Source: Shigella phage vB_SdyM_006. Taken from it: a DNA stretch of 64,000 nt. The notes under the pieces are model-generated. The model had not been told where the DNA came from. It did not search any database and saw only the letters and a list, made by a program, of their open reading frames with translations. Both the position numbers and the translations under genes were made by a program. The stretch lies in sequence record MK295204; one strand, written 5' to 3'. Below, one piece after another: positions 5,028 through 58,727 of this stretch; the stretch's first letter is position 1, and every line of letters begins with the position of its first letter.

Positions 5028-5040
5028 GAACCTCCAAGTT

Positions 5041-5235
5041 AATTATATACAAAAATAATATTTTGCATTTGCAATCAAGGAGCTGCGCTCCTTGATATTT
5101 TTATTATTTTATTAAGTTCTTTATATATTATATATAACTATTAAGTAATAAATTAGTAACTCTAGTAAATTAATTTATTAAAAGTCTAGTATATTCTATA
5201 TAACTATTAAGTAATAAATTAATAACTCTATGTTA
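5041..5235. repeat. Intergenic repeat module copy A: GC-clamp stem-loop (GGAGC-TGC-GCTCC) plus two copies of an AT-rich promoter-like unit
   Basis: Core unit tatataactattaagtaataaatta occurs twice here and twice at 40474-40664; the stem-loop plus T-run is shared by both loci. Confidence 0.7.
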
Positions 5236-6657
5236 CTATTTTCTGGTATGTTCTATCCAGTCTTTTACTATTTTTTGATCTTCTATATTATCAGGGTCTA
5301 ATTTTCTACCTAGTTTTCTTAGAAGATACATATAACGATATTTTTCTTTAGTAGTCATTTCGTATTGTTTTTGAAATGATAATCGCTTTCTTGTTTGTTT
5401 TGCTTTAGGAACTTCTAACATGTAATCAGTACAGATAGTAGCATTTTTAAAATACTTATCTTTTATATACTTTGCTAATCTCATATCAGGAACAAATAAA
5501 TTAACTTTTTTATTGCTTTTATTGACCCGGATATTAGTTCTTGCACATAATTGAAAAGCCGGTTCAAGATATTTTGATACTATATAAGCGTTAACTAATT
5601 CATCTTCTTCTAACCCTGCTGATATAGCAAGTTCTTTTAGTATAGGAATTTGCCATGGTAATGGGTTAAAGCTAAACATGACTACAACGTTCCTATAATC
5701 CGTATAGGAGTTTAATCCATGTGGGTTATATGGAACTTCAAGTCCTTTATTAAAACGCGCCCTGTATGAATTCCTGGTGTATATAAATGGCTCATCTCCA
5801 ATTAACCCGTCAAGAATATTTTTGATTCTGGAATAATTGGTTAAACCATCAATTTCTTTATCAGCATTATGTTTAGACCAAGAATTTTCAAACATAACGT
5901 TTATTTGGATTCTTGAAGTATTAGAATATTCTTTAAATACGAGTTTATCTTCTAGAGGTGATTTAACAAAATCCCATTTGTTAAAATATTTTAGAATTTT
6001 ACCAGTAAAAGTGTCTTCTATATTTGCTGCAGAAATAGTTACTTTATCAAAAACTTCCCAATCTTTACTAGACACGTCATTAATAAAATAGCATGTTGCG
6101 CCAGATTCCGTTTTAGATATTTTTGTTGGAATACCTTGTAATAAAGCTTTGTATAAAGGGAGTAAACTCACACAGATATCATCTAATTGGTTAATACCCT
6201 GTAATGCAAGTTCTTCTATTTCTTCTTTATATTTTTCATCTAAAATAAGATCTGATAATCCATCACTTATAGGAAGACAATATTTAAGGATTTCTTCTAA
6301 ATTATGAGAAAACGTAAATTTATTAAATGACACTAATTCTGGGACTTCATCAATATATAGACTAAATCCTTTGAACTTACTAAAATCCGTAATTGATAAC
6401 AATGCAGAATGAGTTATAAACAAAACATCTGCTTGTGTTTCTTCAATAGCTTTATTAACAGACTTTGAGCCAAGTTTATTGTCAGAATCAATTAATACCC
6501 CTTGTCCGCCCAACGAGCAAAAATAATCAAAGGATTGCTTAGACAAAAGCCTCGATATCGAGGCTATAATTGATTTTTCTTTTTTATTGACAATATTTTC
6601 TACAATGGCTTTAGTCTTTCCAGCAGCTGGAATTGCTTTTAAGACTTCAATTTTCAT
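5236..6657 (-). CDS. P-loop NTPase of unknown function
   Basis: 473 aa; Walker A-like AIPAAGKTKA near N-terminus and Walker B-like LYIDEV about 90 aa later; large C-terminal region with no recognised motif. Confidence 0.6.
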   Translation of the reverse strand: MKIEVLKAIPAAGKTKAIVENIVNKKEKSIIASISRLLSKQSFDYFCSLGGQGVLIDSDNKLGSKSVNKAIEETQADVLFITHSALLSITDFSKFKGFSLYIDEVPELVSFNKFTFSHNLEEILKYCLPISDGLSDLILDEKYKEEIEELALQGINQLDDICVSLLPLYKALLQGIPTKISKTESGATCYFINDVSSKDWEVFDKVTISAANIEDTFTGKILKYFNKWDFVKSPLEDKLVFKEYSNTSRIQINVMFENSWSKHNADKEIDGLTNYSRIKNILDGLIGDEPFIYTRNSYRARFNKGLEVPYNPHGLNSYTDYRNVVVMFSFNPLPWQIPILKELAISAGLEEDELVNAYIVSKYLEPAFQLCARTNIRVNKSNKKVNLFVPDMRLAKYIKDKYFKNATICTDYMLEVPKAKQTRKRLSFQKQYEMTTKEKYRYMYLLRKLGRKLDPDNIEDQKIVKDWIEHTRK

Positions 6658-8210: not shown

Positions 8211-8232
8211 AAAAAGGACCCGAAGGTCCTTA
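8211..8232 (-). terminator. GC-clamp tetraloop hairpin (GGACC-CGAA-GGTCC) followed by U-run on minus strand
   Basis: Read directly; sits between the 8234-8566 ORF and nrdG. Confidence 0.45.
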
Positions 8233-8233
8233 A

Positions 8234-18570: not shown

Positions 18571-18803
18571 AAATCACCGTTTAAAGTTTTTAGAATGATA
18601 AGATTTATCTTGAGCAACTGGTAAGTCAAGAACGTCAGAAATACCAATTTTAGCTGGGCGAGCTGTCAGCCTATCTTGGACATCAACTTTCTTTTCAAAC
18701 TGACCAGCTAACAGGTAATATAAACGATCATTAGACATAATTCTCTCCATTTGTTTTAATGAGGCTATACTATTACAAAATATAGCCTTTGTACACTTAT
18801 TTT

Positions 18804-19226
18804 TTAGATTTTTTCAAAACCTGATTCGTCGCAATCATTTTCATCATAAAACACGGTGTACCCAAGTTTTATCATAGCTTGTAGAGTAGCATTCATGATA
18901 TCAATATTTTCTTCAGAATGGTTCATATTTAAATAAACATAAGCAGAATCACCTGTATGCTCTTTATACTCGTCTTCATTAATTGTCACAACAAAAATAG
19001 ATTTTGGTGATTTGTTTCGTGTAAAATACAGTCGAAAGCACTCTAAATTGTAAGCAATAAGTTCACAAATGGAATTAGTTTTATTTCTCACATTTAAAGA
19101 TTCAAATGAATCTTTAAAAATAGATGAATTTAATTCTTTAGATTCTAAATTGATGCAATCAATAATATCGTTTACTGCTTTGATTTTATCATCACAAAGA
19201 ATCAAAGCTCTAGAACACATTCCCAT
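18804..19226 (-). CDS. Hypothetical protein
   Basis: 140-aa ORF. Confidence 0.5.
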   Translation of the reverse strand: MGMCSRALILCDDKIKAVNDIIDCINLESKELNSSIFKDSFESLNVRNKTNSICELIAYNLECFRLYFTRNKSPKSIFVVTINEDEYKEHTGDSAYVYLNMNHSEENIDIMNATLQAMIKLGYTVFYDENDCDESGFEKI

Positions 19227-19839: not shown

Positions 19840-19868
19840 GATAATTCTCCTTTGATTTGATAAAGCTT

Positions 19869-19897
19869 ATAATATCATAGACCAAGGCAAAGTAAAC
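19869..19897 (-). promoter_or_regulatory. T4-type early promoter (minus strand): -35 GTTTAC, 17-nt spacer, -10 TATTAT, A-rich upstream
   Basis: Minus-strand reading GTTTACtttgccttggtctatgaTATTAT, about 30 nt upstream of the 19839 start codon and just after a terminator hairpin. Confidence 0.5.
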
Positions 19898-19914
19898 AAT
19901 TATTTTCATTTAAA

Positions 19915-19940
19915 ACCAAAAAAGGAACCTTTTGGTTCCT
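19915..19940 (-). terminator. Hairpin GGAACC-AAAA-GGTTCC followed by U6 on minus strand
   Basis: Read directly; after the stop of the 19940-20314 gene. Confidence 0.5.
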
Positions 19941-29774: not shown

Positions 29775-30025
29775 TTTATTTCCTTACATGTATTAGTTTC
29801 AAAATCAACAATAATATTTTTACGTTCAATGCCAAGATTAATTAATTTAGAAATACATTGACCTTGGATTTTTTGGTCTTCTAAACCTTTAGAAACACTT
29901 TTAGATAATGCACTCCATGAAAAACAAATAACTATTAAAATAACACATCCAATTAAATATTTCATGATATACTCCATTTGTTTTGATGTGTCTATAGTAT
30001 TATAGATTTTTTGTGTTGTAAACAT
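29771..30025 (-). CDS. Small secreted protein
   Basis: 84 aa; internal Met followed by signal-peptide-like MKYLIGCVILIVICFSWSALS. Confidence 0.4.
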   Translation of the reverse strand: MFTTQKIYNTIDTSKQMEYIMKYLIGCVILIVICFSWSALSKSVSKGLEDQKIQGQCISKLINLGIERKNIIVDFETNTCKEIK

Positions 30026-30031
30026 TTATTT

Positions 30032-30487
30032 TTAATTTTTTGAAATTAATTTTCGACATTGGTTTATGTATGCTTTGCGCTGGTTGTCCTCTAATTTTTC
30101 TAGATACGCAGCTTTTTGATCTTTAAAATTAACTAATCTTTCACTTATCTTATTAAATGTATCAGATTTAAGATAAAATACAGATCTTTTAGATTTAAAT
30201 TCAAAATAAGCTATAACAGTTCTTGACACATTTTCTCCTGGCTTCACTTGTGTCCTAGTACTTAATGGAAAATTCAAGTACATTGCAGCTGTGTATTCAG
30301 CCAAGAAGAAAGTCACTTTATCGACGTTATATAAGAGCCAGGACAATATATCATCTTCATTGATATATCTAAATTCAGATTCAATTAAAAGCCTATACCG
30401 AAGATCTGAGACTTGACATTTGCCAGCTTCATAAGAAGGCTCAAAACTTTCTGTGATGACAGAAAGTTCATCTAAATTATAATTCAT
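30032..30487 (-). CDS. Paralog family member 3 of 3
   Basis: 151 aa; shares the Y-x-A-x-Y-L-NFPL core, F-Y-L-x-x-D and a C-terminal Y-I-x-x-C-R-K/N-x-I motif with the two upstream ORFs. Confidence 0.5.
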   Translation of the reverse strand: MNYNLDELSVITESFEPSYEAGKCQVSDLRYRLLIESEFRYINEDDILSWLLYNVDKVTFFLAEYTAAMYLNFPLSTRTQVKPGENVSRTVIAYFEFKSKRSVFYLKSDTFNKISERLVNFKDQKAAYLEKLEDNQRKAYINQCRKLISKN

Positions 30488-31664: not shown

Positions 31665-31732
31665 TATAGACTCCGTTTTTAAATTATGTAGCTATTATAC
31701 ACACAATTTTTAATTTGTACATACTATAAACG

Positions 31733-31754
31733 AAAAAAGGAACCAAAAGGTTCC
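31733..31754 (-). terminator. Hairpin GGAACC-UUUU-GGUUCC plus U6 on minus strand
   Basis: Read directly; after the stop of the 31762-32178 ORF. Confidence 0.45.
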
Positions 31755-31761
31755 TTTAATT

Positions 31762-33127: not shown

Positions 33128-33204
33128 TGGTACACCTACGGGAATTCGAATCCCGGTTACACGCTCGAAAGGCGTGGGTCCTAGACCACTAGACGATAGG
33201 TGCA
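33128..33204 (-). tRNA. tRNA-Glu (anticodon UUC)
   Basis: Manual fold: acceptor GCACCUA/UAGGUGU, anticodon stem CACGC with loop CUUUCGA, T-loop UUCGAAU, encoded CCA. Confidence 0.7.
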
Positions 33205-33210
33205 TTAAAA

Positions 33211-33302
33211 TGGAGGAGAGTATGGGATTCGAACCCATGGAACAGCGTAACTGTCCAACGGTTTTCAAGACCGTCTCAATAATCCATCTCTGACAACTCT
33301 CC
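33211..33302 (-). tRNA. tRNA-Ser (anticodon UGA), class II
   Basis: Perfect acceptor GGAGAGU/ACUCUCC, anticodon loop CUUGAAA, long variable arm, T-loop UUCGAAU, CCA. Confidence 0.8.
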
Positions 33303-33309
33303 AATATAA

Positions 33310-33627
33310 TTAAAACAGTAGACTATAAACAGTACCTTTACAATCTATAGGTTGTGTTTTTGAATATTCTTTAAATAGATTTAAATAACCAATTTCTTCA
33401 GGTTCCCATTGTCCTTCTAAACCATAACATGAACAATGTGAGCCGTTAACTTCCCAAAATATATCATTACTATCTTTGAAGATTACAGTAGCATACCCAG
33501 AATAATCTTCATAATCGTAATATGCTAAAATGATTTCTTTGTCATTAAGTGAATCCATAGGGATTTGGAATTCATGACAGATGTCTTCTTTTGAAGTAAA
33601 CAGTTCCATAAACACATTAGTTTTCAT
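33310..33627 (-). CDS. Hypothetical protein between tRNA genes
   Basis: ORF track gives 33310-33720, but the N-terminal part overlaps tRNA-Asp; trimmed to internal Met (about 105 aa). Confidence 0.4.
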   Translation of the reverse strand: MKTNVFMELFTSKEDICHEFQIPMDSLNDKEIILAYYDYEDYSGYATVIFKDSNDIFWEVNGSHCSCYGLEGQWEPEEIGYLNLFKEYSKTQPIDCKGTVYSLLF

Positions 33628-33650
33628 ATCAATATCCTCAAAATTAATTT

Positions 33651-33726
33651 TGGCGGTCTTACCGAGAATCGAACTCGGTGCTGTTCCGTGACAGGGAACT
33701 ATGTTAACCAGGTACACCATAAGACC
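33651..33726 (-). tRNA. tRNA-Asp (anticodon GUC)
   Basis: Acceptor GGUCUUA/UAAGACC, anticodon stem GUUCC with loop CUGUCAC, T-loop UUCGAUU, CCA. Confidence 0.8.
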
Positions 33727-33756
33727 TTAAAAATGTACCCATCCGGCTTTCCAGTC

Positions 33757-33857
33757 TGGTGAAGGGTTGTCACCTCTAGTTTAAACCTGCTAGTCAAGTA
33801 ATAATTGCATATCGTCCAATTATCAAAACCGTCTAGGTTATATTACACCACTTCCTA
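33757..33857 (-). ncRNA. Possible small stable RNA in the tRNA cluster (not foldable as a canonical tRNA)
   Basis: About 100 nt between tRNA-Asp and tRNA-Gly, begins with tgg (CCA-like 3' end on minus) and contains local hairpins; T4 carries small stable RNAs in the equivalent position. Confidence 0.2.
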
Positions 33858-33919
33858 GAATACCGTCTAAGCGGACTTGATCGACGTAGATTACACCATA
33901 TACGTCTGATTGTGGAATT

Positions 33920-33993
33920 TGGAGCGATCTACGGGTATCGAACCCGTATCTTCTGGGTGGAAACCAGAAATAATAGCCATTATACTAAGATCG
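33920..33993 (-). tRNA. tRNA-Gly (anticodon UCC)
   Basis: Perfect acceptor GCGAUCU/AGAUCGC, anticodon stem UCUGG with loop UUUCCAC, T-loop UUCGAUA, CCA. Confidence 0.8.
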
Positions 33994-34615
33994 CATATTT
34001 ATTAATAAATCTTCTTGCTTGGGTATGACTTAATCCTATATGTTTAGCAAATTTATTTAAGTTACCTCTTATTGAAATATCAAATGATTTTAATATTTCT
34101 AATCTATAATTAATTTCGTCTTTTGACAATGTAGAGGCATTATTAATAGAAATTTTGTTTTTAGATATATCCGAATGTCTCTTATTTTTAAAACCAAACG
34201 AATTTTTCTTTTTGCTAAAATCATATAATCCGAGTCTAAGTCTTTTCTTAAATGTATTAACTTGTTTACTTATAGTTAATTTAGATTTTGGCAATGAATT
34301 TATATAATCCCAACCACCTTCACCACCAACTTTTAAATTATATGTATTTTTGCTTTTAACAAATTTTTCTGTAACTATTTTGGCTTCATGTATAAACATG
34401 TCATACTTATTTTTATGAAATTTTAAAATAGTTTTTTCAAAATTTTCTTTGCCATATTTTTCTATGGCTTTTTTCAAAATCTTACCTGAACCAAAATATC
34501 CATCTTCTAAATCTTTGGTTTTATGAACACCTATATAAATTTTATTATTTATTTTATTTTTAATTTTGTATGTATAATAAAACATTATAGCCTTATTTAT
34601 CTTTTGGTACTCCAT
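33980..34615 (-). CDS. GIY-YIG homing endonuclease (seg-like) inside the tRNA cluster
   Basis: 211 aa; N-terminal YTYKIKNKINNKIYIGVHKT ... GYFGSG is a GIY-YIG motif; lysine-rich C-terminal DNA-binding region. Confidence 0.75.
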   Translation of the reverse strand: MEYQKINKAIMFYYTYKIKNKINNKIYIGVHKTKDLEDGYFGSGKILKKAIEKYGKENFEKTILKFHKNKYDMFIHEAKIVTEKFVKSKNTYNLKVGGEGGWDYINSLPKSKLTISKQVNTFKKRLRLGLYDFSKKKNSFGFKNKRHSDISKNKISINNASTLSKDEINYRLEILKSFDISIRGNLNKFAKHIGLSHTQARRFINKYAILV

Positions 34616-34779
34616 TCTTTATTAGTTGCTTTATTAACAGCAGTAGAATAAGAATTTTTAATATCTTCTGTAACAGAATAGCCAGTTAACATAGTAGAAA
34701 TTAAAATAACATATCCAAGCATTAATAAAATACAAGATAAAAATCCTGCAATAATAAGAATTGTACCTAAAGTAGTCAT
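34597..34779 (-). CDS. Small membrane protein (trimmed from the 34597-34890 ORF, which overlaps a tRNA)
   Basis: Internal Met yields about 60 aa with one long hydrophobic helix. Confidence 0.35.
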   Translation of the reverse strand: MTTLGTILIIAGFLSCILLMLGYVILISTMLTGYSVTEDIKNSYSTAVNKATNKEWSTKR

Positions 34780-34798
34780 ATTGTTCTCACAAATTATT

Positions 34799-34875
34799 TG
34801 GTGACCCACCATGGAATCGAACCATGCTCCAACGCTTATGAGGCGTTCGCTTTCAACCAGTAAGCTAGAGGGCCT
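34799..34875 (-). tRNA. tRNA with anticodon CAU (Met or Ile2-type)
   Basis: Anticodon stem AACGC/GCGUU with loop CUCAUAA, T-arm CAUGG-UUCGAUU-CCAUG, CCA; acceptor has one mismatch. Confidence 0.65.
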
Positions 34876-34882
34876 TGCAATT

Positions 34883-34966
34883 GGTGGCACCGGGTAGACT
34901 CGAACTACCGAAGGCCGAAGCCTGGAGATTTACAGTCTCCTGTCATTGCCGCTAGACTACGATGCC
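34883..34966 (-). tRNA. tRNA-Tyr (anticodon GUA), class II
   Basis: Anticodon stem GGAGA/UCUCC with loop CUGUAAA, long variable arm, acceptor GGCAUCG/CGGUGCC, CCA. Confidence 0.7.
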
Positions 34967-35011
34967 TTTTCTTATCAATAACGACTAAAAATAATCGTTA
35001 TTAATCAGAAT

Positions 35012-35088
35012 TGGTACACACTACTGGATTCGAACCAGTGACCTACGGTTTAGAAGACCGTTGCTCTATCCATCTGAGCTAAGCATGC
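35012..35088 (-). tRNA. tRNA-Arg (anticodon UCU)
   Basis: Anticodon stem ACGGU/ACCGU with loop CUUCUAA, T-loop UUCGAAU, CCA; acceptor stem has three G-U pairs. Confidence 0.6.
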
Positions 35089-35089
35089 A

Positions 35090-35380
35090 TTATAAGTACT
35101 GTTTAATCAGTTCTTCGTTATTTTTAAAAAGAATAAAAATATTATCACGAACTTCAGTATCTGAGATATGCCATTTCATAGCATCAATTAAAATGTCTTT
35201 TGGGATCATATTATATAAATTATTTAGTAAAGCAATATTATTTATATCAATATCAACTTCAAATAATTCAAAAATACAACACGAAATAGAATCATAAAAA
35301 TCTTTAATGTCTATTTCATACTTAGACAAATTATTTATAAATTCTGTTTTAGCTTGTTCTGGATTATGTGCTTTAAACAT
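35090..35380 (-). CDS. Hypothetical protein
   Basis: 96-aa ORF between tRNA-Arg and tRNA-Trp. Confidence 0.45.
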   Translation of the reverse strand: MFKAHNPEQAKTEFINNLSKYEIDIKDFYDSISCCIFELFEVDIDINNIALLNNLYNMIPKDILIDAMKWHISDTEVRDNIFILFKNNEELIKQYL

Positions 35381-35402
35381 TTTTATTCCTATTATTCTAA
35401 AA

Positions 35403-35477
35403 TGGCAGGCTCTGTAGGAATCGAACCCACGTCTTCGGATTTGGAATCCGGTATTCTACCGACTGAACTAAGAACCT
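35403..35477 (-). tRNA. tRNA-Trp (anticodon CCA)
   Basis: Anticodon loop UUCCAAA, D-arm UAGUUCAGUCGGUAGAAU, T-loop UUCGAUU, CCA. Confidence 0.7.
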
Positions 35478-35478
35478 T

Positions 35479-35562
35479 TGGCGGGCAGTGTAGGATTCGA
35501 ACCTACGTCGTCAAATGACACGGATTAACAGTCCGCTGCTTAATCCACTCAGCCAACTACCC
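35479..35562 (-). tRNA. tRNA-Asn-like (anticodon GUU) with an unusually long variable arm
   Basis: Anticodon arm CGGACUGUUAAUCCG is nearly identical to E. coli tRNA-Asn, but the variable region is about 13 nt (GUCAUUUGACGAC), giving 84 nt. Confidence 0.55.
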
Positions 35563-37774: not shown

Positions 37775-37846
37775 TTTATATACCGTGTTGTTTAAAAGAA
37801 TTTAATCATATACAAGAATATTTTTATGCGATTAAAAACCAAAAAA

Positions 37847-37865
37847 GAGACCGAAGTCTCTTTTT
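37847..37865 (-). terminator. Hairpin GAGAC-CGAA-GUCUC flanked by A/T runs (terminator-like in both orientations)
   Basis: Read directly; between the 37883-38161 and 37343-37774 ORFs. Confidence 0.4.
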
Positions 37866-38161: not shown

Positions 38162-38222
38162 TTTTAATCTCTGGTGTTTAAATTTATAAGTATTATATCA
38201 CAATTTTTATGATTGTAAACTG

Positions 38223-38495: not shown

Positions 38496-38555
38496 TTTTC
38501 AATTATTCCTCTTTAGTGGTTTAAACATACTATCGTCTTAAATTACGTATGTAAA

Positions 38556-39232
<677 letters not shown>

Positions 39233-39252
<20 letters not shown>

Positions 39253-39892
39253 GTTTTACCTTTTTTTGAAAAATTTCTAAAGAATCATTATTTTCAATAA
39301 CAATATCACCTTCTAAAATAGGGAGGTCTTGTTCAGTGATATGGTCATCATTTGTAATTGTATTTTTTTTAATATGGATAATTTTACCTTTATTGTTTCG
39401 AACAGTATCAATTTCATGTACTTGTCGACAATCAGTAATAATAACAACATGACTTCTAGGGATTAATTTATCAATGTAATTGAAAACCATATCTACCCAG
39501 TACATTTTATCCATGCTTACAACAATATCAGTTCCAAGGGTCTGTAGGAACTTTCGAATTGTAAATTCATTATTATTTATAATAGGGATTTCTGGTATAT
39601 CACCTTTAAGACCATGACTTTTTAAATATCGAATACAGCGAATCATATAATCTTCGAATTGTTCTTGTGTCATATTTAATTTATATTCGCGATCAATGCC
39701 ATGTCCGTCAAAGTCATCATAGGTCAATTCAAACCCATTATAGTTTTGCCAATTTATAGACAAAGTGAATTTTAGATAATCGGCAAAAGCCATAGTGTGT
39801 GAAGTAATATTATTTTCTTCACAAATATCTTCAATAAATTTAGCACATGTATCTTTTCCGGAACGTTTTTTACCGGTCAAACCAATAATCAT
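39233..39892 (-). CDS. 1: Deoxynucleoside monophosphate kinase gp1
   Basis: 219 aa; P-loop GLTGKKRSGKDT and overall resemblance to T4 gp1. Confidence 0.85.
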
Positions 39893-39894
39893 AA

Positions 39895-40473
39895 TTACCT
39901 CATAGAAGGATGTAAGTTTCTACCTATTGAAATAGCGGAGTCTTGAATAGACGGACGAGATACTATAATTTTATTATTTTTCTCTATTTCGAAATATTTA
40001 AAGTTAAATACAACAGTCATATAAACCGCTGGGTCACCTTCGTTATCATAACCATATTCTATATCAGATATAGAAGAAGGCCAAGCGCCATAATAGTTAA
40101 ATGATATTAAGGATTCTTTTTTATCATTATCTAATATATGTAATATCAGTCCTTCAGGTTGTCCAGATGGGTCCCAGGCGGTATTATTATGGGTGATATA
40201 GTTATTAATTGATAACATCCATTTGTATATCTCTACGTAAGAGAGGAGTTCCTCGTCTAATAAAACTTTAGCTACTAATTCTCCATGTTCAAGTGTAGAA
40301 CCTGGTAAATTAGATCTACCAAGTCCTTTTGTTCCTAAAGGAACTTCAGTAATAGGTATTCTAACATCAGGAAGTGTAAAGCTTTGGACATTTAATGTAA
40401 ACGCTTCAGTTAATTTACTATCTGGTATATCAATTCTAAAATTTGTAGAATTTGTTTGATTAAAAAAACTCAT
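39895..40473 (-). CDS. 3: Tail completion / tube terminator protein gp3
   Basis: 192 aa; assigned by synteny (1-3-2-4). Confidence 0.65.
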   Translation of the reverse strand: MSFFNQTNSTNFRIDIPDSKLTEAFTLNVQSFTLPDVRIPITEVPLGTKGLGRSNLPGSTLEHGELVAKVLLDEELLSYVEIYKWMLSINNYITHNNTAWDPSGQPEGLILHILDNDKKESLISFNYYGAWPSSISDIEYGYDNEGDPAVYMTVVFNFKYFEIEKNNKIIVSRPSIQDSAISIGRNLHPSMR

Positions 40474-40664
40474 ATTAGTTTCCTTGTTTTATTAATTTAT
40501 TAAAAGTATAGTATATTCTATATAACTATTAAGTAATAAATTAATAACTATATGTTACTATTTCTAAAGAAATCTGGAGCTGCGCTCCAGAATTTTTATT
40601 ATTTTATTAAGTTCTTTATATATTATATATAACTATTAAGTAATAAATTAATAACTGTACGTTA
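40474..40664. repeat. Intergenic repeat module copy B: promoter-like unit, stem-loop (GGAGC-TGC-GCTCC) plus T-run, second promoter-like unit
   Basis: Same building blocks as 5041-5235 but in a different order. Confidence 0.7.
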
Positions 40665-41483
40665 TTATCTTTTCCAAACTTTAGAAGCTGCAAATCTTGA
40701 ACCTTGAGACATAAATTGCTGAGTAGGCATAAAAATAATATTAGACCAATCTTGTGGTTTAACTTCTATTATAGGGCCTTTAATATGTCCAGGTAAATAA
40801 GCTTTTATCATCTGATCAGAACCATGCATTCCTCTAACACTACTCCAATTAATTTTTAATTTAGTTTTAGAAGAAATGTTACTTGTAGAAGAAAATCTTT
40901 TTAATAGTTCTTCTAAAAATGCTTGTCTGGCTTTAGGTGGTATATAATGAAGATTTAATCCATATAATAATTGATTTCCGTTTCCAGCAGTTTTAGCACC
41001 TAAGAAAATGATCAATGGAAACTTATCCCAATACGGGAGAGTATCTTTATTTTTGGCATCATAAACATAAGTATAAATTTTACCGATTTCTGGTACTTTA
41101 GTTGTTTTTGTTCTTACACCAGTTTTTATAGTTTCTTTAAACCATTTTATAGATTTATTATTAACAGCTGCGCCTTCATTTCTTATTTTTTTCTTTAAAG
41201 TACTTCTAAAGTCATTTACAATTGCAAGTTCACGTTCTCTACGTGATAATTTATGTTTAGATTTACCTTTAATAGCTTCGACTTCTAATGCTTCTTTTAT
41301 TTTATCAGAATACCGACTCATTGCTGATGTGAATGTGCTATATTTTATTCCTTTATATTCAGCAAACTTTTTAGAAGACACAGTTCTTCTAACTTTAGCA
41401 AATTCAACACCTAATTTAATCCAATCTTGTGCTGTTTTAGGTAAAGACATTTCTTCTTCAATTTCAAATATCATCCTTTCCAC
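40665..41483 (-). CDS. 2: DNA end-protector protein gp2
   Basis: 272 aa (T4 gp2 is 274 aa); synteny. Confidence 0.7.
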   Translation of the reverse strand: MERMIFEIEEEMSLPKTAQDWIKLGVEFAKVRRTVSSKKFAEYKGIKYSTFTSAMSRYSDKIKEALEVEAIKGKSKHKLSRRERELAIVNDFRSTLKKKIRNEGAAVNNKSIKWFKETIKTGVRTKTTKVPEIGKIYTYVYDAKNKDTLPYWDKFPLIIFLGAKTAGNGNQLLYGLNLHYIPPKARQAFLEELLKRFSSTSNISSKTKLKINWSSVRGMHGSDQMIKAYLPGHIKGPIIEVKPQDWSNIIFMPTQQFMSQGSRFAASKVWKR

Positions 41484-41920
41484 CCCATGGTCTTTAAAGA
41501 CCTTTCTGTCACTATTTTAAATTTGATATTCATTTTATCCGCTAATTTTTGGGCCGCTTTCCATTTATCACTATTAACCTGGAATGTGTATATTTCTTCC
41601 ATAAATCTTTTTTTAGCCTTAACAGTAATATTAGCAGGTGGTCTAGGTTGTTGGGTTTCTTTAAATGGTTTTACTTCAAATAGAAATTCTTGTCCACTTT
41701 TGAATTTAGCCCAAAAATCCATAAAATATCTTCTTTTTTTGCCATCTGCATTACTAAAGTATGGAATTACGACTTCTTCAGAATTCCACCTAATACAATC
41801 TGGGTTATTATCAAGCCACTTCATAAAAAAGTGTTCCCAAGATGACCTATATGTAATTTTTCTCCAATCACCTTTATATTTGTCTTTATGAACTGGCAAG
41901 TATTTTCCTTTATAAGCCAT
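41471..41920 (-). CDS. 4: Head completion protein gp4
   Basis: 149 aa (T4 gp4 is 150 aa); divergent from gene 53 as in T4. Confidence 0.7.
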   Translation of the reverse strand: MAYKGKYLPVHKDKYKGDWRKITYRSSWEHFFMKWLDNNPDCIRWNSEEVVIPYFSNADGKKRRYFMDFWAKFKSGQEFLFEVKPFKETQQPRPPANITVKAKKRFMEEIYTFQVNSDKWKAAQKLADKMNIKFKIVTERSLKTMGWKG

Positions 41921-41933
41921 AAGTCCACTCCTT

Positions 41934-41941
41934 TATAAATA
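41934..41941 (+). promoter_or_regulatory. Late promoter TATAAATA for gene 53
   Basis: Exact TATAAATA about 30 nt upstream of the gene 53 ATG. Confidence 0.6.
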
Positions 41942-41951
41942 CATATAATAA

Positions 41952-41959
41952 TATTTATA
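41952..41959 (-). promoter_or_regulatory. Late promoter TATAAATA (minus strand) for gene 4
   Basis: Plus-strand tatttata is TATAAATA on minus, about 30 nt upstream of the gene 4 start. Confidence 0.5.
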
Positions 41960-41971
41960 ATAGGGGGTTTT

Positions 41972-46314: not shown

Positions 46315-48234
46315 ATGGATTTAATTAAGAAACAAATAAACAGTATTCCTGAAGTATACACTTCAGCTACTTTTGACGAAATAAAAAATGATTGGATTAA
46401 CTGGTTAAGAGGGCAAGATGAATTTAAAGACTATGATTTTAAAGGTTCTAGATTAAATGTTCTTTTAGATTTATTATCTTATAATGTCCTTTATATCCAA
46501 CAATTTAGTAATTCTGCTTTATATGAATCGTTTATAAGAACAGCTTCTTTAAGGTCTTCAGTTGTTCAGGCTGCACAAGACATGGGATATTTTCCATCTT
46601 CTATGACTGCCGCTGAATGTTCTATAATGTTAGAATGTACGCATAAATTAAAACCACAAAGTATTAAAATCCCAAGAGGTACTAAATTTTTAGCTTCATC
46701 TAAAGATGGCCCAACTCAGCCTTATAACTTTGTGGTAAAAGAAGACGTTAACGTTGTAAAAAGTAAAGACGACAAATATTACCCTATAATTAACTTAGTC
46801 CAAGGGCGTGTTGTTAGAACTGAATTAGAATACGACCCAAATCAACAGATTTTGATTCGTGATAAATTTATGGATAGACACACAGTTAGGGTTATGGTTA
46901 ATGGTGTTAAATGGGAAGACTGGACAGAAAAATCAATTGTTAATATCTCCGGAACAAGCCATGTGTTTTATATGAGAGAAACAATTGACGAATACACCGA
47001 ACTATTTTTTGGTGAAGGCCAAGCAGATTATTCTATTGTTGATGGAAGTTTACAAAGTAATTATATTGGTGGGTTAAAACCTGTTGCTGGAAGTAATATT
47101 GTAATTGAATATATTAGAACAGATGGCGGCAAAGCTAATGGGTCTATTAACTTTAGCTATGCTGATACATTGCAATACGTTTCTGTTGTTAATATAATAG
47201 AAAATTATGATGAAACAGAAGATTATATTGGCGCTTTTGGTGGCGGTGATCCTGAAGATATCGAAAGAATTCGTGAACTTGGCCCTATAAAACGAGAATC
47301 TCAACGCCGTTGTGTAACAGCAACAGATTATGAGTCATTCGTTTCAGAAAGATTTGGGCCTATTGTCCAGGCTGTTCAATGTTTTACAGATAGAGATAAA
47401 CCTGGTTATGCATTTATTGCTATAAAGCCAAAAGAAGGTTTAAGATTATCATCTGTGCAAAGAGAAGATATTCAGAATTACCTTAAAGAATACAATATTT
47501 CTACCATAACACCTAGTATTATGTCTCCTAATTATATGTTCTTAAAACATAAAGTTAAAGTTACATATTCTATGAACAAACTTTCTGAATCTGAGCAATG
47601 GTTAAAAGGTAAAATCATTGACCAAATTGACACATATTATAAAGATGAAGTAGAAATATTTAACAAAAGTTTTCATAAATCTAAAATGTTAACTTATGTT
47701 GATGATGCTGATATTTCTATATTAGGTTCTTCTGCCGAAATAACAATGGTTAGAGAACTAGAAAATTTCTTTAAAACTCCTATGTCTGGTGTAAAATATA
47801 ATAATAAAATATTACCACGTGGTCTTATTAGTAATGTATTTGAATACACAGTTAATGATGAGCTATCGTATGGTGTTAGATTAGCTTCAACTGAGCCTAA
47901 AGGCGATTTAAAAGAAGGTAAAATTGTTATAGGTCCATTTAGACAAGGAGATATTAAAATAAGTCCTTATTTGGGAACTGATTTTGAAAAATTAAAAACA
48001 ACAGATACAAGAAATAGTTATTTTGTTGTTGGTAAAATAATCCATGAAGAGGATTATATCTATTGGGACCTTGGACAATTAAATGTGACAAGTGATAAAT
48101 TTTTAGTCCCGAGTATAGAATTATACGGAACTCCAGGAGATTCTAATATCTTTACAAAAGATGGGTCATTAATTGTATTTGAAAATAATTTAAGACCCGA
48201 ATACACAGAAATTATTATGGAGCCTATAGCTTAA
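46315..48234 (+). CDS. 6: Baseplate wedge protein gp6
   Basis: 639 aa (T4 gp6 is 660 aa); synteny. Confidence 0.8.
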   Translation: MDLIKKQINSIPEVYTSATFDEIKNDWINWLRGQDEFKDYDFKGSRLNVLLDLLSYNVLYIQQFSNSALYESFIRTASLRSSVVQAAQDMGYFPSSMTAAECSIMLECTHKLKPQSIKIPRGTKFLASSKDGPTQPYNFVVKEDVNVVKSKDDKYYPIINLVQGRVVRTELEYDPNQQILIRDKFMDRHTVRVMVNGVKWEDWTEKSIVNISGTSHVFYMRETIDEYTELFFGEGQADYSIVDGSLQSNYIGGLKPVAGSNIVIEYIRTDGGKANGSINFSYADTLQYVSVVNIIENYDETEDYIGAFGGGDPEDIERIRELGPIKRESQRRCVTATDYESFVSERFGPIVQAVQCFTDRDKPGYAFIAIKPKEGLRLSSVQREDIQNYLKEYNISTITPSIMSPNYMFLKHKVKVTYSMNKLSESEQWLKGKIIDQIDTYYKDEVEIFNKSFHKSKMLTYVDDADISILGSSAEITMVRELENFFKTPMSGVKYNNKILPRGLISNVFEYTVNDELSYGVRLASTEPKGDLKEGKIVIGPFRQGDIKISPYLGTDFEKLKTTDTRNSYFVVGKIIHEEDYIYWDLGQLNVTSDKFLVPSIELYGTPGDSNIFTKDGSLIVFENNLRPEYTEIIMEPIA

Positions 48235-51200
48235 TGAAAGCACCTAAAGTTACTAGTCTAAGAATAATAAAATTATCAGCAAACCAGGTTCATGTTAAAT
48301 GGGACCCAGTAGGAAGTAATTTTTATTATTTTGTCGAACTAGCAGAAACAAGAAATAACGGAACTCAGGTTCCGTTAGACAAATTACAATGGCAAAGCCT
48401 GAATTATAGCTCAGATAATGACCGATTTATTAGTATTGGAATAACTCCTAATACCCATTATATGATTAGAGTTTCAGTAAGGGCTAAAGGGTTTGAACAA
48501 TCTGACTGGGCTTATACAGAAGAATTTTTAACATTTAAAACTAATGCGTATTCTTTTGATCATATGAAGGAGTTTACACTATCTGAGAAATTTATTAGTG
48601 AAAAGTTTATTAATAACAACGTGAATTATGTGAATTTTAATACAGATCAGTTATTGGCTTCATTGATGTCTGAAGATTTCCAGTTTACAGCAAAATATAG
48701 CGATGTGTCTCAGGTTTCTAATAAAATTTTAAAAGAAGCTAATTTCCATGAAATACAAGGAACACCTGAAGGCATAACAAGGGTATGTTCTGATATAAAC
48801 CGGGTTATGCCTGCTGAAATGGATGGCGTTTTATATCTGTTTGAGAGATTCCAAAATGTTGTTAAGGTGTCTAATGATAAAGGCCAAACATGGAAGTATT
48901 ATAAAGCTTTAGATGACCGTGTAGGCAATCCAGTTTCTAAGACATGTATTTACCAATCAGATACAACATCGTACGTACTAGGATATGATAGAGTGTTTTA
49001 TGGACGTAGAAGTTCTGATGTTAGATGGTCTGATGACCAACACAGATTCTCAGAAACTGATTTAACATTTGCTAAAATCGGTGATACTTTAAATTTAGGA
49101 TTTGATGTTGAAGTATTCGGAACATTATCGTTTTTGCCTGGTAACGTAACAAGGTTTGCAGAAGCTATTGCAGCAAGCAATGGTTTTTTATACATCGCAG
49201 GTAAAAACAATCTTAGATTTTTAGATTTACAAAATGCTAAAGTTGATATGGACGAAGGGTCTATATCATACGGTAAAAAAATGTTTGATGAGAAAACCAT
49301 TAAAATAACAAGTAATGAAAATATTGTTGTTAAAAAGATGGATATCCTTAATGGCGAATTATATGTTTTGGTGACAGGCGAAGTTAAAAAATATTTTGAT
49401 GACCCTACTAATCCTAAAAATGTTATAGATTCTAAAGACAAAGGTGTCTACAAATTAGTTGATGGTTCATTTGTTAGAGTTTTTGGCAATAATAAAGAAG
49501 AACTTAGAAAAATAGAACATGAATATACTAATATGTCTACAGATGGTAAAGAACTCTTTATTAGTTATGCCAATTTTAAATACACTGAATACACTAAAGA
49601 CGATAATCTAGAAAATGGTATAAAGTATATAAAAACTGAAAGTGGATTATCTGATAAACACTATCATATGGGTTCTATTAGAACATCTGACGGCGATAAT
49701 TGGAAAGCATATTATATGAGTTATTATGCAGAACCTTGGTTTACATGGATGAATAGAACTAAAACCAGGGTGTGGATTAATAATGATAATAGACCTGTTG
49801 TTATATACCCATCAAAAACATACACAAAAATAATCGATACCGTTGGTCCAACAGGTGAAGACCGGGTTGTCAAAGAAGTTTGGGATAAAGGCCATGGCAC
49901 ATTTTATTGCAAGAATGTATTCTTTGAAGGGTTTAAACAATATTCTGGTGGGGTTTTAATTCATAAAAGTTCTGGCGAAATAGTTGGTTATTATGAATAC
50001 AATTATCGTGTTCGTGATAACGCTCAGATTATATGGATACCTAAACTTATTTGTCTAGAAGCAACTTTGCAAAATCAAGTTCACCCAGAAATATGGGAAC
50101 CAAAACATAATGAAGGTGAAAAAGACCCAGATTTAAGGCCTTTATTAAACACAATGATTCCAGATAGTTATCTATTACAAAATAGTAATTTTGAAAAATT
50201 CTGTGAGTATTATCTCCAATTTTTATCAGATGGTAAAAATACACATTACAATAAATTACTAAATTTAATACGTAATAAGTACCCAAGAGAAACTGATTCT
50301 GTTGAATACTTGTGGTCTGAAATAAATAAGCGAAACATTTATTTAGACAAAGAAAAAAGAGATCAAGTTATTAGATTTTTTGAATCAAGAAAATCAGACT
50401 TCTATAGTACAAAAGGGACTGAGGCAAGTTATAAATTCCTGTTTAAATTATTATATAATGAAGACGTTGAAATAGAAATAGAATCTAATTCTGGGTTAGA
50501 ATACGACATCGTTGTTTATTCCGATAATATTAACGAAGACATAGTTGGAAGAACAATATACACCCCAACTGGTCGATGTAATGTTACATATATCGAAAGA
50601 GAATACTCTGAAGGTAAATTACAATGGCGTATGACGATTCATAATATGATAGGACGCTTTTTGGTTGGCCAGAATGTTTTAGGCGAACGTAGTGATTTTA
50701 AAGGTCAAATAATCCAAGGTATAAAAGGAAAGGAAATATTATCTAATAAAGAAGACCTAGCTAATAGATCAAGAAGCTATTATGTTATGAAAATAAAATC
50801 TAAACTACCAACTTCTAGATATTCTTCTGATGTTTTGAGATTTGTTCATCCTGTTGGATTTGGATTTATTGGAATAACTCTATTAACAATGTTTATTAAT
50901 TCTGGGTTATCATTAAAACATTCTGAAACTATAATTAATAAATTAATAACATATAGATATGATTCTGGATATCCTTTAGTTTGGCCTGATAGAGTAGCAA
51001 TATTAAAAAATGATATCATAGAGCGAGACCCTGTAACAGGTGATGCATTATATACTTTGCATCCTAAAGCTGGTGAAGATTTTGATATCCCGGATGATTA
51101 TGATAAAAATGAAGGATTCATTGGTCCAGAAAAACCGTATACAAATATGGCTGAGTATTTAAAAAATGTTCCTCCTTCTAAAAGGAGAAATCATTATAGT

Positions 51201-52352: not shown

Positions 52353-52374
52353 GGAGACTTCGGTCTCCTTTTTT
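52353..52374 (+). terminator. Rho-independent terminator: GGAGAC-UUCG-GUCUCC plus U6
   Basis: Read directly, immediately after the gp8 stop and before the gene 9 late promoter. Confidence 0.6.
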
Positions 52375-52375
52375 G

Positions 52376-52383
52376 TATAAATA
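52376..52383 (+). promoter_or_regulatory. Late promoter TATAAATA for gene 9
   Basis: Exact TATAAATA about 24 nt upstream of the gene 9 ATG. Confidence 0.6.
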
Positions 52384-58700: not shown

Positions 58701-58705
58701 TTTAA

Positions 58706-58727
58706 GGACCTTCGGGTCCTTTTTTTG
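58706..58727 (+). terminator. Rho-independent terminator: GGACC-UUCG-GGUCC plus U7
   Basis: Read directly, immediately after the wac stop. Confidence 0.6.

Follow-up and report, generated by a model that had tools for sequence, protein, structure and literature searches.

The 64,000-nucleotide (nt) stretch of Shigella phage vB_SdyM_006 analysed here (sequence record MK295204; called the window throughout) comes, to judge by its sequence, from a T4-like phage of the Bragavirus type. A 4-kb query around the spacer between genes 2 and 3 has its best match in Proteus phage phiP4-3 (Straboviridae, Bragavirus), at 95.9% over the full length, and further matches in the Bragavirus phages SJ_PmiM, PM2 and Pm5461, each at 86-87%. 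From 589 to 41920 virtually every gene of the window lies on the minus strand, on which the order is gene 4 (head completion), gene 2, a 191-nt spacer, gene 3, gene 1, 57A and 57B, and divergent late promoters (TATAAATA) stand at 41921-41971. The spacer, at 40474-40664, is the subject of this report. It comprises all of the non-coding DNA from the gene 2 stop codon to the gene 3 ATG, and the gene content on either side of it is the same in the five phages. Its building blocks are two 66-nt AT-rich units and one GC hairpin, which together form a cassette (copy B) with a sister (copy A) at the junction of a 473-amino-acid (aa) open reading frame (ORF) and gene 55. The features are as follows.

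40665-41483, minus strand: gene 2 (DNA end protector), the upstream late gene (phrog_429, E 1.7e-74)
40592-40664, minus strand: upstream unit of copy B, TATAAT type (8-nt flank, core, hexamer and A-rich tail)
40626-40656, 40622-40627 and 40596-40609, minus strand: core, TATAAT hexamer and R-arm (TAATAAAATAATAA) of the upstream unit
40573-40591, both strands: hairpin of copy B, TCTGGAGC-GCA-GCTCCAGA, a perfect palindrome
40566-40572: sense-strand T-run, TTTCTTT, after the hairpin
40486-40565, minus strand: downstream unit of copy B, TAGAAT type, with flank AGAAATAGTAACATAT
40519-40549 and 40515-40520, minus strand: core and TAGAAT hexamer of the downstream unit
40534-40547 and 40489-40502, minus strand: L-arm TTATTAATTTATTA of the downstream unit and its exact complement, R-arm TAATAAATTAATAA
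40474-40485, minus strand: Shine-Dalgarno (SD) region AAGGAAAC and spacer before the gene 3 ATG
40408-40487: interval of a mosaic breakpoint between the window and phiP4-3, a divergence shift at the cassette edge
39895-40473, minus strand: gene 3 (tail completion/sheath stabiliser)
39233-39892, minus strand: gene 1 (deoxynucleoside monophosphate (dNMP) kinase), starting 2 nt past gene 3 (phrog_139, E 2e-51)
5028-5235, minus strand: copy A, the sister cassette, at the junction of the 473-aa ORF and gene 55
5197-5227, 5131-5161 and 5075-5095, minus strand: unit core, second unit core and hairpin of copy A
5236-6657, minus strand: the 473-aa ORF adjoining copy A (PHROG 2467, unknown function)

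Read along transcription, copy B runs from the gene 2 stop codon, 8 nt from the first core, through the TATAAT unit with its A-rich tail, the hairpin, TTTCTTT, the TAGAAT unit and the SD to the gene 3 ATG. Copy A runs from the stop codon of the 473-aa ORF through a TAGAAT unit and a TATAAT unit to the hairpin (TCAAGGAGC-GCA-GCTCCTTGA), from which about 47 nt lead to the start of gene 55 (late sigma factor). Both unit types have the same length and differ solely at base 3 of the hexamer and in the 8-nt block just downstream of it. A repeat search of the window returned one repeat family in four 93-nt copies (5097-5189, 5163-5255, 40485-40577 and 40592-40684), and the 31-nt core AGTTATTAATTTATTACTTAATAGTTATATA (minus strand) is matched four times with at most one mismatch, compared with 0.00 matches expected from 100 shuffles, while the hairpin centre GGAGCGCAGCTCC is matched twice against 0.08 expected. 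Since both counts exceed chance, the similarity stands far above generic AT-richness. Thus, the original prediction of a repeated module at this spacer holds, including its order of unit, hairpin, unit in copy B as against unit, unit, hairpin in copy A (on the transcribed strand), and the fear that the likeness might amount to generic AT-rich sequence is not borne out by the core counts. The 473-aa ORF beside copy A has a Walker-A-like motif and precedes gene 55 in each of the two genera with the repeat; it gave a DEAD-box helicase match in Pfam just below threshold and no relative in PDB, and is uninformative about the cassette.

A scan of IMG/VR with exact and degenerate core patterns recovered only the phiP4-3 and Pm5461 genomes, each with four loci and two units per locus. 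Named by their flanking ORFs, the sites are S1 (gene 2 to gene 3), S2 (473-aa ORF to gene 55), S3 (gene 25 to uvsY) and S4 (gene 35 to gene 36). Every site is intergenic, holds two units and one hairpin and is oriented as the local genes; S1 and S3 are ordered unit-hairpin-unit and S2 and S4 unit-unit-hairpin, and these block orders are circular permutations of each other. The core begins 8 nt past the upstream stop codon at all sites except S3 of phiP4-3, where a 49-nt tandem duplication intervenes. In this duplication the final 20 nt of gene 25 are fused to the opening 29 nt of a unit (junction ACTTAA/AAGTT; phiP4-3 47404-49633, oriented ~1550-1650); it is absent from SJ_PmiM and looks like a scar of slipped or illegitimate recombination. 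Across 26 units in five phages the core is invariant bar one variable position, where T is replaced by C in the second of the tandem units in the window phage and phiP4-3; the genes alongside differ by about 14% between the phages (~86% identity). Outside Bragavirus a diverged version occurs only in Gualtarvirus phages of Providencia and Morganella, at S1 and S2, with a core that is 8 nt shorter or truncated and with the hexamers TATAAA and TAGAAA. Another 8 metagenome and 3 bacterial-genome matches to the core have neither the extended core nor the hairpin and were set aside as chance matches in AT-rich DNA; they thus give no host or prophage origin for the cassette. The repeat is not described in the genome papers of Pm5461 and Morganella phage MP1, and literature searches by genus and phage names returned no relevant description of it.

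The hairpin is the block whose nature is easiest to read. That of copy B is terminator-like on both strands (five such hairpins were found in the region against 0.6 expected) and folds with z -4 relative to shuffles. Its stems vary between sites and genera (CTGGAGC, CAAGGAGC, CTGGGAGC, CTGGGGAG), and pairing is nevertheless perfect: all 88 of 88 cells are paired, 6 of the 8 pairs have changed on both sides, and none of 500 shuffles matches this. The loops are variable, and at two sites the Pm5461 loops are the reverse complements of those of phiP4-3 (GCA/TGC and GAA/TTC). A good sense-strand U-run follows the hairpin at S1, S3 and S4 and is absent at S2; the antisense side is T-rich throughout, and in the Pm5461 record the hairpins at S2 and S4 carry the annotation of rho-independent terminators. 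With a T-run on the sense side and a T-rich run on the antisense side, the copy B hairpin looks like a bidirectional intrinsic terminator, and the family as a whole like a structure-conserved element of this kind; we infer that transcripts would actually terminate there. An antisense promoter-like sequence, TTGTTT-N17-TATAGT at 40484-40512 (plus strand; 6.7 bits, 99.7th percentile), takes its -35 from the complement of the gene 3 SD region and faces the strong antisense terminator of the hairpin, such that a short antisense RNA could arise, at S1 only. Elsewhere in the window the same GC hairpins with UUCG/GAAG-type loops (GGACCCGAAGGTCC, GAGACTTCGGTCTC) stand on opposite strands tens of kb apart (8211-8233 and 58702-58724; 37838-37860 and 52354-52376), which suggests that terminator hairpins may be re-used around the genome.

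The differing block orders had been put down to modular recombination rather than simple duplication, and this is upheld by swaps of units, by the likeness of paralogous cassettes, by copied bits of genes and by a breakpoint. At S1 the window phage and phiP4-3 have a TATAAT unit, the hairpin and a TAGAAT unit; SJ_PmiM, PM2 and Pm5461 have a TAGAAT unit with 12 extra nt, the hairpin and a TAGAAT unit. In the 12 extra nt a decayed duplicate of the gene 3 leader can be recognised, the intact form of which (ACTAAGGAAACTAT) lies inside the S3 cassette of Pm5461, and the flank of the S1 downstream unit is similar to the end of the 473-aa ORF at S2, final codons and stop included (AGAAAATAGTAACATAG). 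S1 of phiP4-3 is 95% identical to S3 of the same phage and 82% identical to S1 of Pm5461. SJ_PmiM carries a unit-hairpin-unit cassette, 99-100% identical, at another locus (25/uvsY), and is itself a mosaic, its S3 being 100% identical to that of phiP4-3 and its S1 98% identical to that of Pm5461. Between the window and phiP4-3, differences are spaced about 12 nt apart within gene 3 as far as 40408 (~9% divergence to the left) and number only six in 40409-41413 (0.6% over the next 1 kb to the right), a drop that maps the breakpoint to the interval listed above. Mosaicism is frequent in this region, so the coincidence of breakpoint and cassette is suggestive of recombination rather than proof. 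Taken as sequences, the cassettes support a reshuffling of blocks by recombination rather than simple duplication, and the best reading of their near-identity is that ectopic gene conversion and exchange between phages maintain it, with the cassette probably also serving as a recombination junction. Another sharp mosaic junction lies about 1.5 kb from the cassette, at 38556-39100, where identity over 57B is 70-76% to phiP4-3 and 96% to SJ_PmiM, and the relation is reversed over the next 200 nt.

We favour the explanation, at a probability of about 0.45, that the spacer is a lineage-specific composite terminator/promoter cassette akin to the PeSLs (promoter-early stem-loops), which consist of a stem-loop, a promoter and an SD/ATG and mediate shuffling (PMC2839356; PMC4122927), and which have been described in RB49/phi1, PST/T4 and nt-1/KVP40 (Arbiol et al. 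2010, PMC2839356; Comeau et al. 2014, PMC4122927). The hairpin, lying between an A-tract and a T-tract, would act as an intrinsic terminator or attenuator in both directions, and each 66-nt unit, its invariant core ending in a near-consensus -10 (TATAAT/TAGAAT), would act as a promoter without a -35, perhaps one insensitive to AsiA. At S1 the hairpin would attenuate late transcripts arriving from genes 4 and 2, and the downstream unit would start transcripts over gene 3 and over the dNMP kinase gene closely coupled to it.

The likeness to PeSLs is considerable: both are small intergenic stem-loops (terminators) with AT-rich promoter-type sequence followed by SD/ATG, both are homology patches repeated in the genome, and both are linked to mosaic junctions and module shuffling. 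As in a PeSL, the hairpin lies upstream of the promoter-type sequence at S1 and at 25/uvsY, 23 nt before the second unit, whereas it comes after both units at the 55 and 35/36 sites. The PeSL promoter (TTGACA or TTTACW, then TAYWAT at ~17-nt spacing) has no counterpart in the unit, which lacks a recognisable -35. An SD and start codon close the element at S1, where AAGGAAAC-N6-ATG directly follows the second unit, whereas at the other three sites extra sequence that includes the gene's own promoter intervenes. PeSLs are dense in hyperplastic regions beside ORFans and indels; the cassette, in contrast, occupies four junctions of conserved core genes. It shares their role as a recombination site, except that the shuffling takes place within the cassette and leaves the flanking gene content unchanged. 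It also differs from PeSLs in pairing two units with a single hairpin at each site, in either of two circularly permuted orders, in its 31-nt core invariant across phages and in its internal 14-bp inverted repeat; the window phage has ordinary PeSL-type cassettes of its own besides (hairpin and GTTTAC promoter, for example 19840-19939), which are distinct from this family. The cassette is therefore best filed as a variant of the PeSL kind rather than as something wholly new, though one that fails two defining PeSL features.

Several properties of the unit are those of a promoter. If the hexamer is placed at -12 to -7, the invariant block covers -41 to -7, the sole polymorphism within the Bragavirus hexamer falls on its third position (T/G), the least important one, and the 8-nt block that differs between the unit types falls around the expected +1. 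The hexamers also fit the phage's early -10 set, TA[TG][AT]AT, every unit points the way its neighbouring genes are transcribed, and at S1 the downstream unit stands 47 nt before the gene 3 ATG, followed by the SD and start codon. That the units are promoters of a non-canonical, -35-independent class is thus the most likely identity for them, if an unproven one; having no -35, they would probably depend on upstream AT-rich contacts or on a bound factor. Their promoter activity and its timing are read from these positions, and the original label of "early-type" promoters is not established, as the units have no -35 and match neither the early, the middle nor the late class.

Early promoters of the ordinary kind in this phage consist of GTTTAC (or GTGTAC/ATGTAC), N17-18 and TA[TG][AT]AT, often just past a terminator hairpin, and true PeSL-type cassettes lie in the window at 19840-19939, 31665-31761, 38162-38222 and 38496-38555. 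In the first two of these, the hairpin is followed by GTTTAC/ATGTAC-N17-TATTAT/TATAAT and an SD/ATG; their hairpins share the stem GGAACC/GGTTCC and have the loops AAAA and TTTT, a loop flip between paralogues. A second, looser family of repeated regulatory DNA is an 83-nt direct repeat, 71% identical, at 18736-18818 and 29963-30045, which spans two regions of early promoter, leader and start (GT[GT]TAC-N18-TA[GC]TAT ... GGAG ... ATG). The phage also encodes MotA and AsiA and has T4-consensus MotA-type sites (TGCTTtA) elsewhere; a good candidate, TATTGCTTTA-N12-TATAAT at 35234, lies in a cluster of nine tRNA genes (Glu, Ser, Asp, Gly, Met, Tyr, Arg, Trp and Asn) on the early strand (33128-35562, minus). 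Canonical late TATAAATA is used before genes 4, 53 and 36.

Measured against these classes, the unit makes a poor promoter, and a series of observations weighs against the explanation we favour. The unit's best -35 is TTAATT at 18 nt (3 of 6 positions), it has no TG extension, and its composite score of about 4 bits (98.5th percentile of window positions) compares with 5.5-9.8 bits for six of the seven canonical early promoters scored, the weakest of which (18796) reaches 4.15. No GTTTAC lies at the proper distance, being 32 nt away from the hexamer wherever it occurs in a unit's 5' flank; a MotA box, (a/t)(a/t)(a/t)TGCTT(t/c)A at 11-13 nt before TAnnnT, is absent (TAATTTATTA at -35 to -26, with no GCTT), as is late TATAAATA, the nearest sequences being TATATATA (7 of 8) and TATATAGA and TATAAAGA (6 of 8 each). 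The Gualtarvirus hexamers, TATAAA and TAGAAA, are poor for sigma-70, no unit stands downstream of the hairpin at S2 and S4, and the motif search of the Pm5461 annotators did not call the units promoters. A simple promoter would also leave the invariance of the whole spacer and the internal 14-bp inverted repeat unexplained. Moreover, the downstream gene seems to own a promoter past the cassette at three of the four sites. At S3, a counterpart of the T4 uvsY promoter region GGTATAATGAATC can be made out past the cassette, as GGTTATAATGAATC; the T4 uvsY middle promoter/oriF region reads AATGCTTCA-N13-TATAATGAATC (T4 segment 1329-1404), and GGTTATAATGAATC stands just upstream of uvsY in the cassette of the SJ_PmiM/phiP4-3 type, the Pm5461 version being GTATATAATG. 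At S4, gene 36 has its own TATAAATA past the hairpin, and at S2 the Providencia gene 55 has TGATATAAT (TGnTATAAT-like) past the hairpin. At S2, S3 and S4 the cassette looks, by its layout, like an add-on rather than the promoter of the downstream gene.

The location of S1 had been thought an unusual one, inside a late-gene operon, which is overstated: on the minus strand the dNMP kinase gene 1 follows gene 3 after 2 nt, and T4 itself has a promoter by gene 1, of the MotA type (aATGCTTCA-N11-TATAAT), in the 49-nt gap between genes 3 and 1. Since gene 1 is pre-replicative and T4 has a promoter there, a pre-late promoter upstream of gene 1 is to be expected, and the spacer is the only non-coding DNA available upstream of the gene 3/gene 1 pair. 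One further observation counts against the cassette here: a MotA-box-like AAAGCTTTA-N13-TAGAAT inside gene 3, at ~40357-40384 (minus strand), 90 nt into the gene, could serve gene 1 instead. The five Bragavirus genomes all keep it, as does Providencia phage PSTRCR_127; it could be a real middle promoter of gene 1 or be kept by coding constraint alone. The idea that the spacer is a necessary promoter source for gene 1 is weakened by this sequence in conserved gene 3 codons.

What a promoter leaves unaccounted for raises the question of a function in the DNA itself. Each unit has an internal inverted repeat, the L-arm TTATTAATTTATTA in the core and the R-arm TAATAAATTAATAA in the tail, 31 nt apart, which is exact over 12-14 bp in window-type units and 13/14 or 15/16 elsewhere, and an inverted repeat of at least 12 bp arises in 0.2% of shuffles. 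The four units are also the four least stable 60-bp duplex stretches of the window, more than 4 standard deviations from the mean, and the two cassettes rank first and second in instability at the 100- and 150-bp scales. T4 origins of the R-loop type need no more than a promoter and an AT-rich DNA unwinding element of ~100 bp, with oriF at uvsY and oriG at 34 (PMC3016281); oriE, oriF and oriG lie near transcription strand switches, and the origins share no common motif (Kreuzer & Brister 2010, PMC3016281). Hence the cassettes might be replication-initiation elements of the oriF/oriG type, in which promoter and unwinding element yield an R-loop primer and the GC palindrome forms a boundary or cruciform, the selected function being replication and not the expression of neighbours. 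This explanation, which overlaps with the promoter one, we consider unlikely. Besides the instability of the units, it can call on the positions of the sites, at 9.9, 47.9, 93.1 and 128.7 kb of the 167.8-kb phiP4-3 genome and thus 36-49 kb apart, a spacing more even than 99.6% of random placements (P ~0.0035; 0.011 in Pm5461) in a test that was post hoc and had four points. One site is at the 25/uvsY junction, the location of T4 oriF, S1 and S3 lie 1.4 kb and ~1 kb from a transcription strand switch, the cassette is seemingly dispensable for the downstream gene at three of four sites, and the hairpin loops flipped between phages suggest that the hairpin forms in DNA. On the other side, AT-richness and instability are also expected of strong phage promoters and of terminators flanked by A and T, Gualtarvirus has the element at two sites only, and T4 origins lack a common motif, with oriA (near soc) and oriC (near rI.-1) located elsewhere, as is oriE near repEA (PMC3016281). 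A one-to-one match of the four sites with T4 origins was rejected, since uvsY/oriF alone coincides. The cassette resembles oriF and oriG in being a promoter-type element of ~100 bp followed by very AT-rich, easily unwound DNA, in its copy at 25/uvsY and in having several copies around the genome; it differs in that oriF and oriG have MotA-box promoters and no shared sequence, whereas the cassette has no MotA box and what remains of a T4-like uvsY promoter is found past the S3 cassette and not inside it. The broader proposition, that the four cassettes are origins or some other genome-wide DNA-level signal, we hold to be rather improbable; the 31-nt core would then be a site bound by a factor, and the -10-like element would fire into the least stable DNA at points a quarter-genome apart.

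It is likewise unlikely that the hairpin alone is useful and that the units are functionless, selfish or neutral AT-rich repeats resembling miniature inverted-repeat transposable elements (MITEs), carried to a few junctions by the very active homologous and illegitimate recombination of the phage and homogenised by gene conversion. The 12-16 bp terminal inverted arms of each unit are of this kind, as are the confinement to two related genera (four sites in one and two in the other), the flanking gene pieces carried along, the 49-nt duplication scar, the circularly permuted block order and concerted evolution, and the mini-circle of PeSLs offers a precedent. Against this reading stand an identical core in 26 units of five phages that are ~14% diverged, where the chance for one orthologous pair is 0.86^31, or ~0.01, a unit orientation that always follows local transcription, and the constant two units and one hairpin per Bragavirus site; target-site duplications and a transposase are absent, and identical repeats 36-49 kb apart should be costly in a recombination-proficient genome unless selected. 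Correia elements of Neisseria are intergenic palindromic repeats, or MITEs, that carry promoters or terminators. Like them, the cassette has short units with terminal inverted repeats, is multicopy, sits just after genes and may, on its sequence features, be able to supply promoter or terminator activity; unlike them, it has far fewer copies, no target-site duplication and an orientation fixed to transcription, and its spread is explained by homologous recombination in a lytic phage and not by transposition.

Less probable still is a function as RNA, whether as an A-rich RNA of ~50 nt begun at the unit and ended by the hairpin or as a structured 3' untranslated region or processing signal in the late polycistronic mRNA, the two forms being taken together. 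A unit lies a constant distance ahead of each hairpin, separated from it by A-rich sequence, the whole spacer and the single unit fold with z -3.5 and z -3.6 relative to shuffles, and the cassette always starts 8 nt past a stop codon. Against this, no Rfam family is found in 39500-41500 at E<=1, the phage groups have little in common over the putative short RNA (12-nt indels and differing +1 blocks), the gene 55 site hairpin has no sense-strand U-run, the stems of the units are AU-only with one mismatch in most copies, and there is no covariation, the units being invariant. A small protein is rejected, as the 26-aa plus-strand ORF across the hairpin (40552-40632) is broken by indels in Pm5461-type cassettes, and likenesses to the RegA RNA operator (AAUUGUUAUGUAA compared with AAUAGUUAUAUA), to a sigma-S -10 (CTATACT in the TAGAAT-type unit) and to H-NS/IHF sites are in our judgement accidental, of the forking-path sort to which AT-rich DNA lends itself.

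Small promoter/terminator cassettes, serving as movable stretches of homology, are thought to account for part of the diversification of T4-like phages, and the present family extends this process to the junctions of conserved core genes. There it has left clear traces: blocks in circularly permuted order, gene ends copied along, flipped loops, cassettes evolving in concert and a mosaic breakpoint. Its unusually constrained 31-nt core fits none of the three known promoter classes of the phage. If the units are promoters, they would constitute a fourth, -35-independent type in a phage that encodes MotA and AsiA; if the cassettes are origins, they would be the first T4-type phage origins with a common recognisable sequence, which would make origin recognition directly testable. 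In practice, these near-identical repeats of 160-200 bp are likely to be hotspots at which genomes rearrange and at which Proteus phages used in therapy recombine when they infect the same cell.

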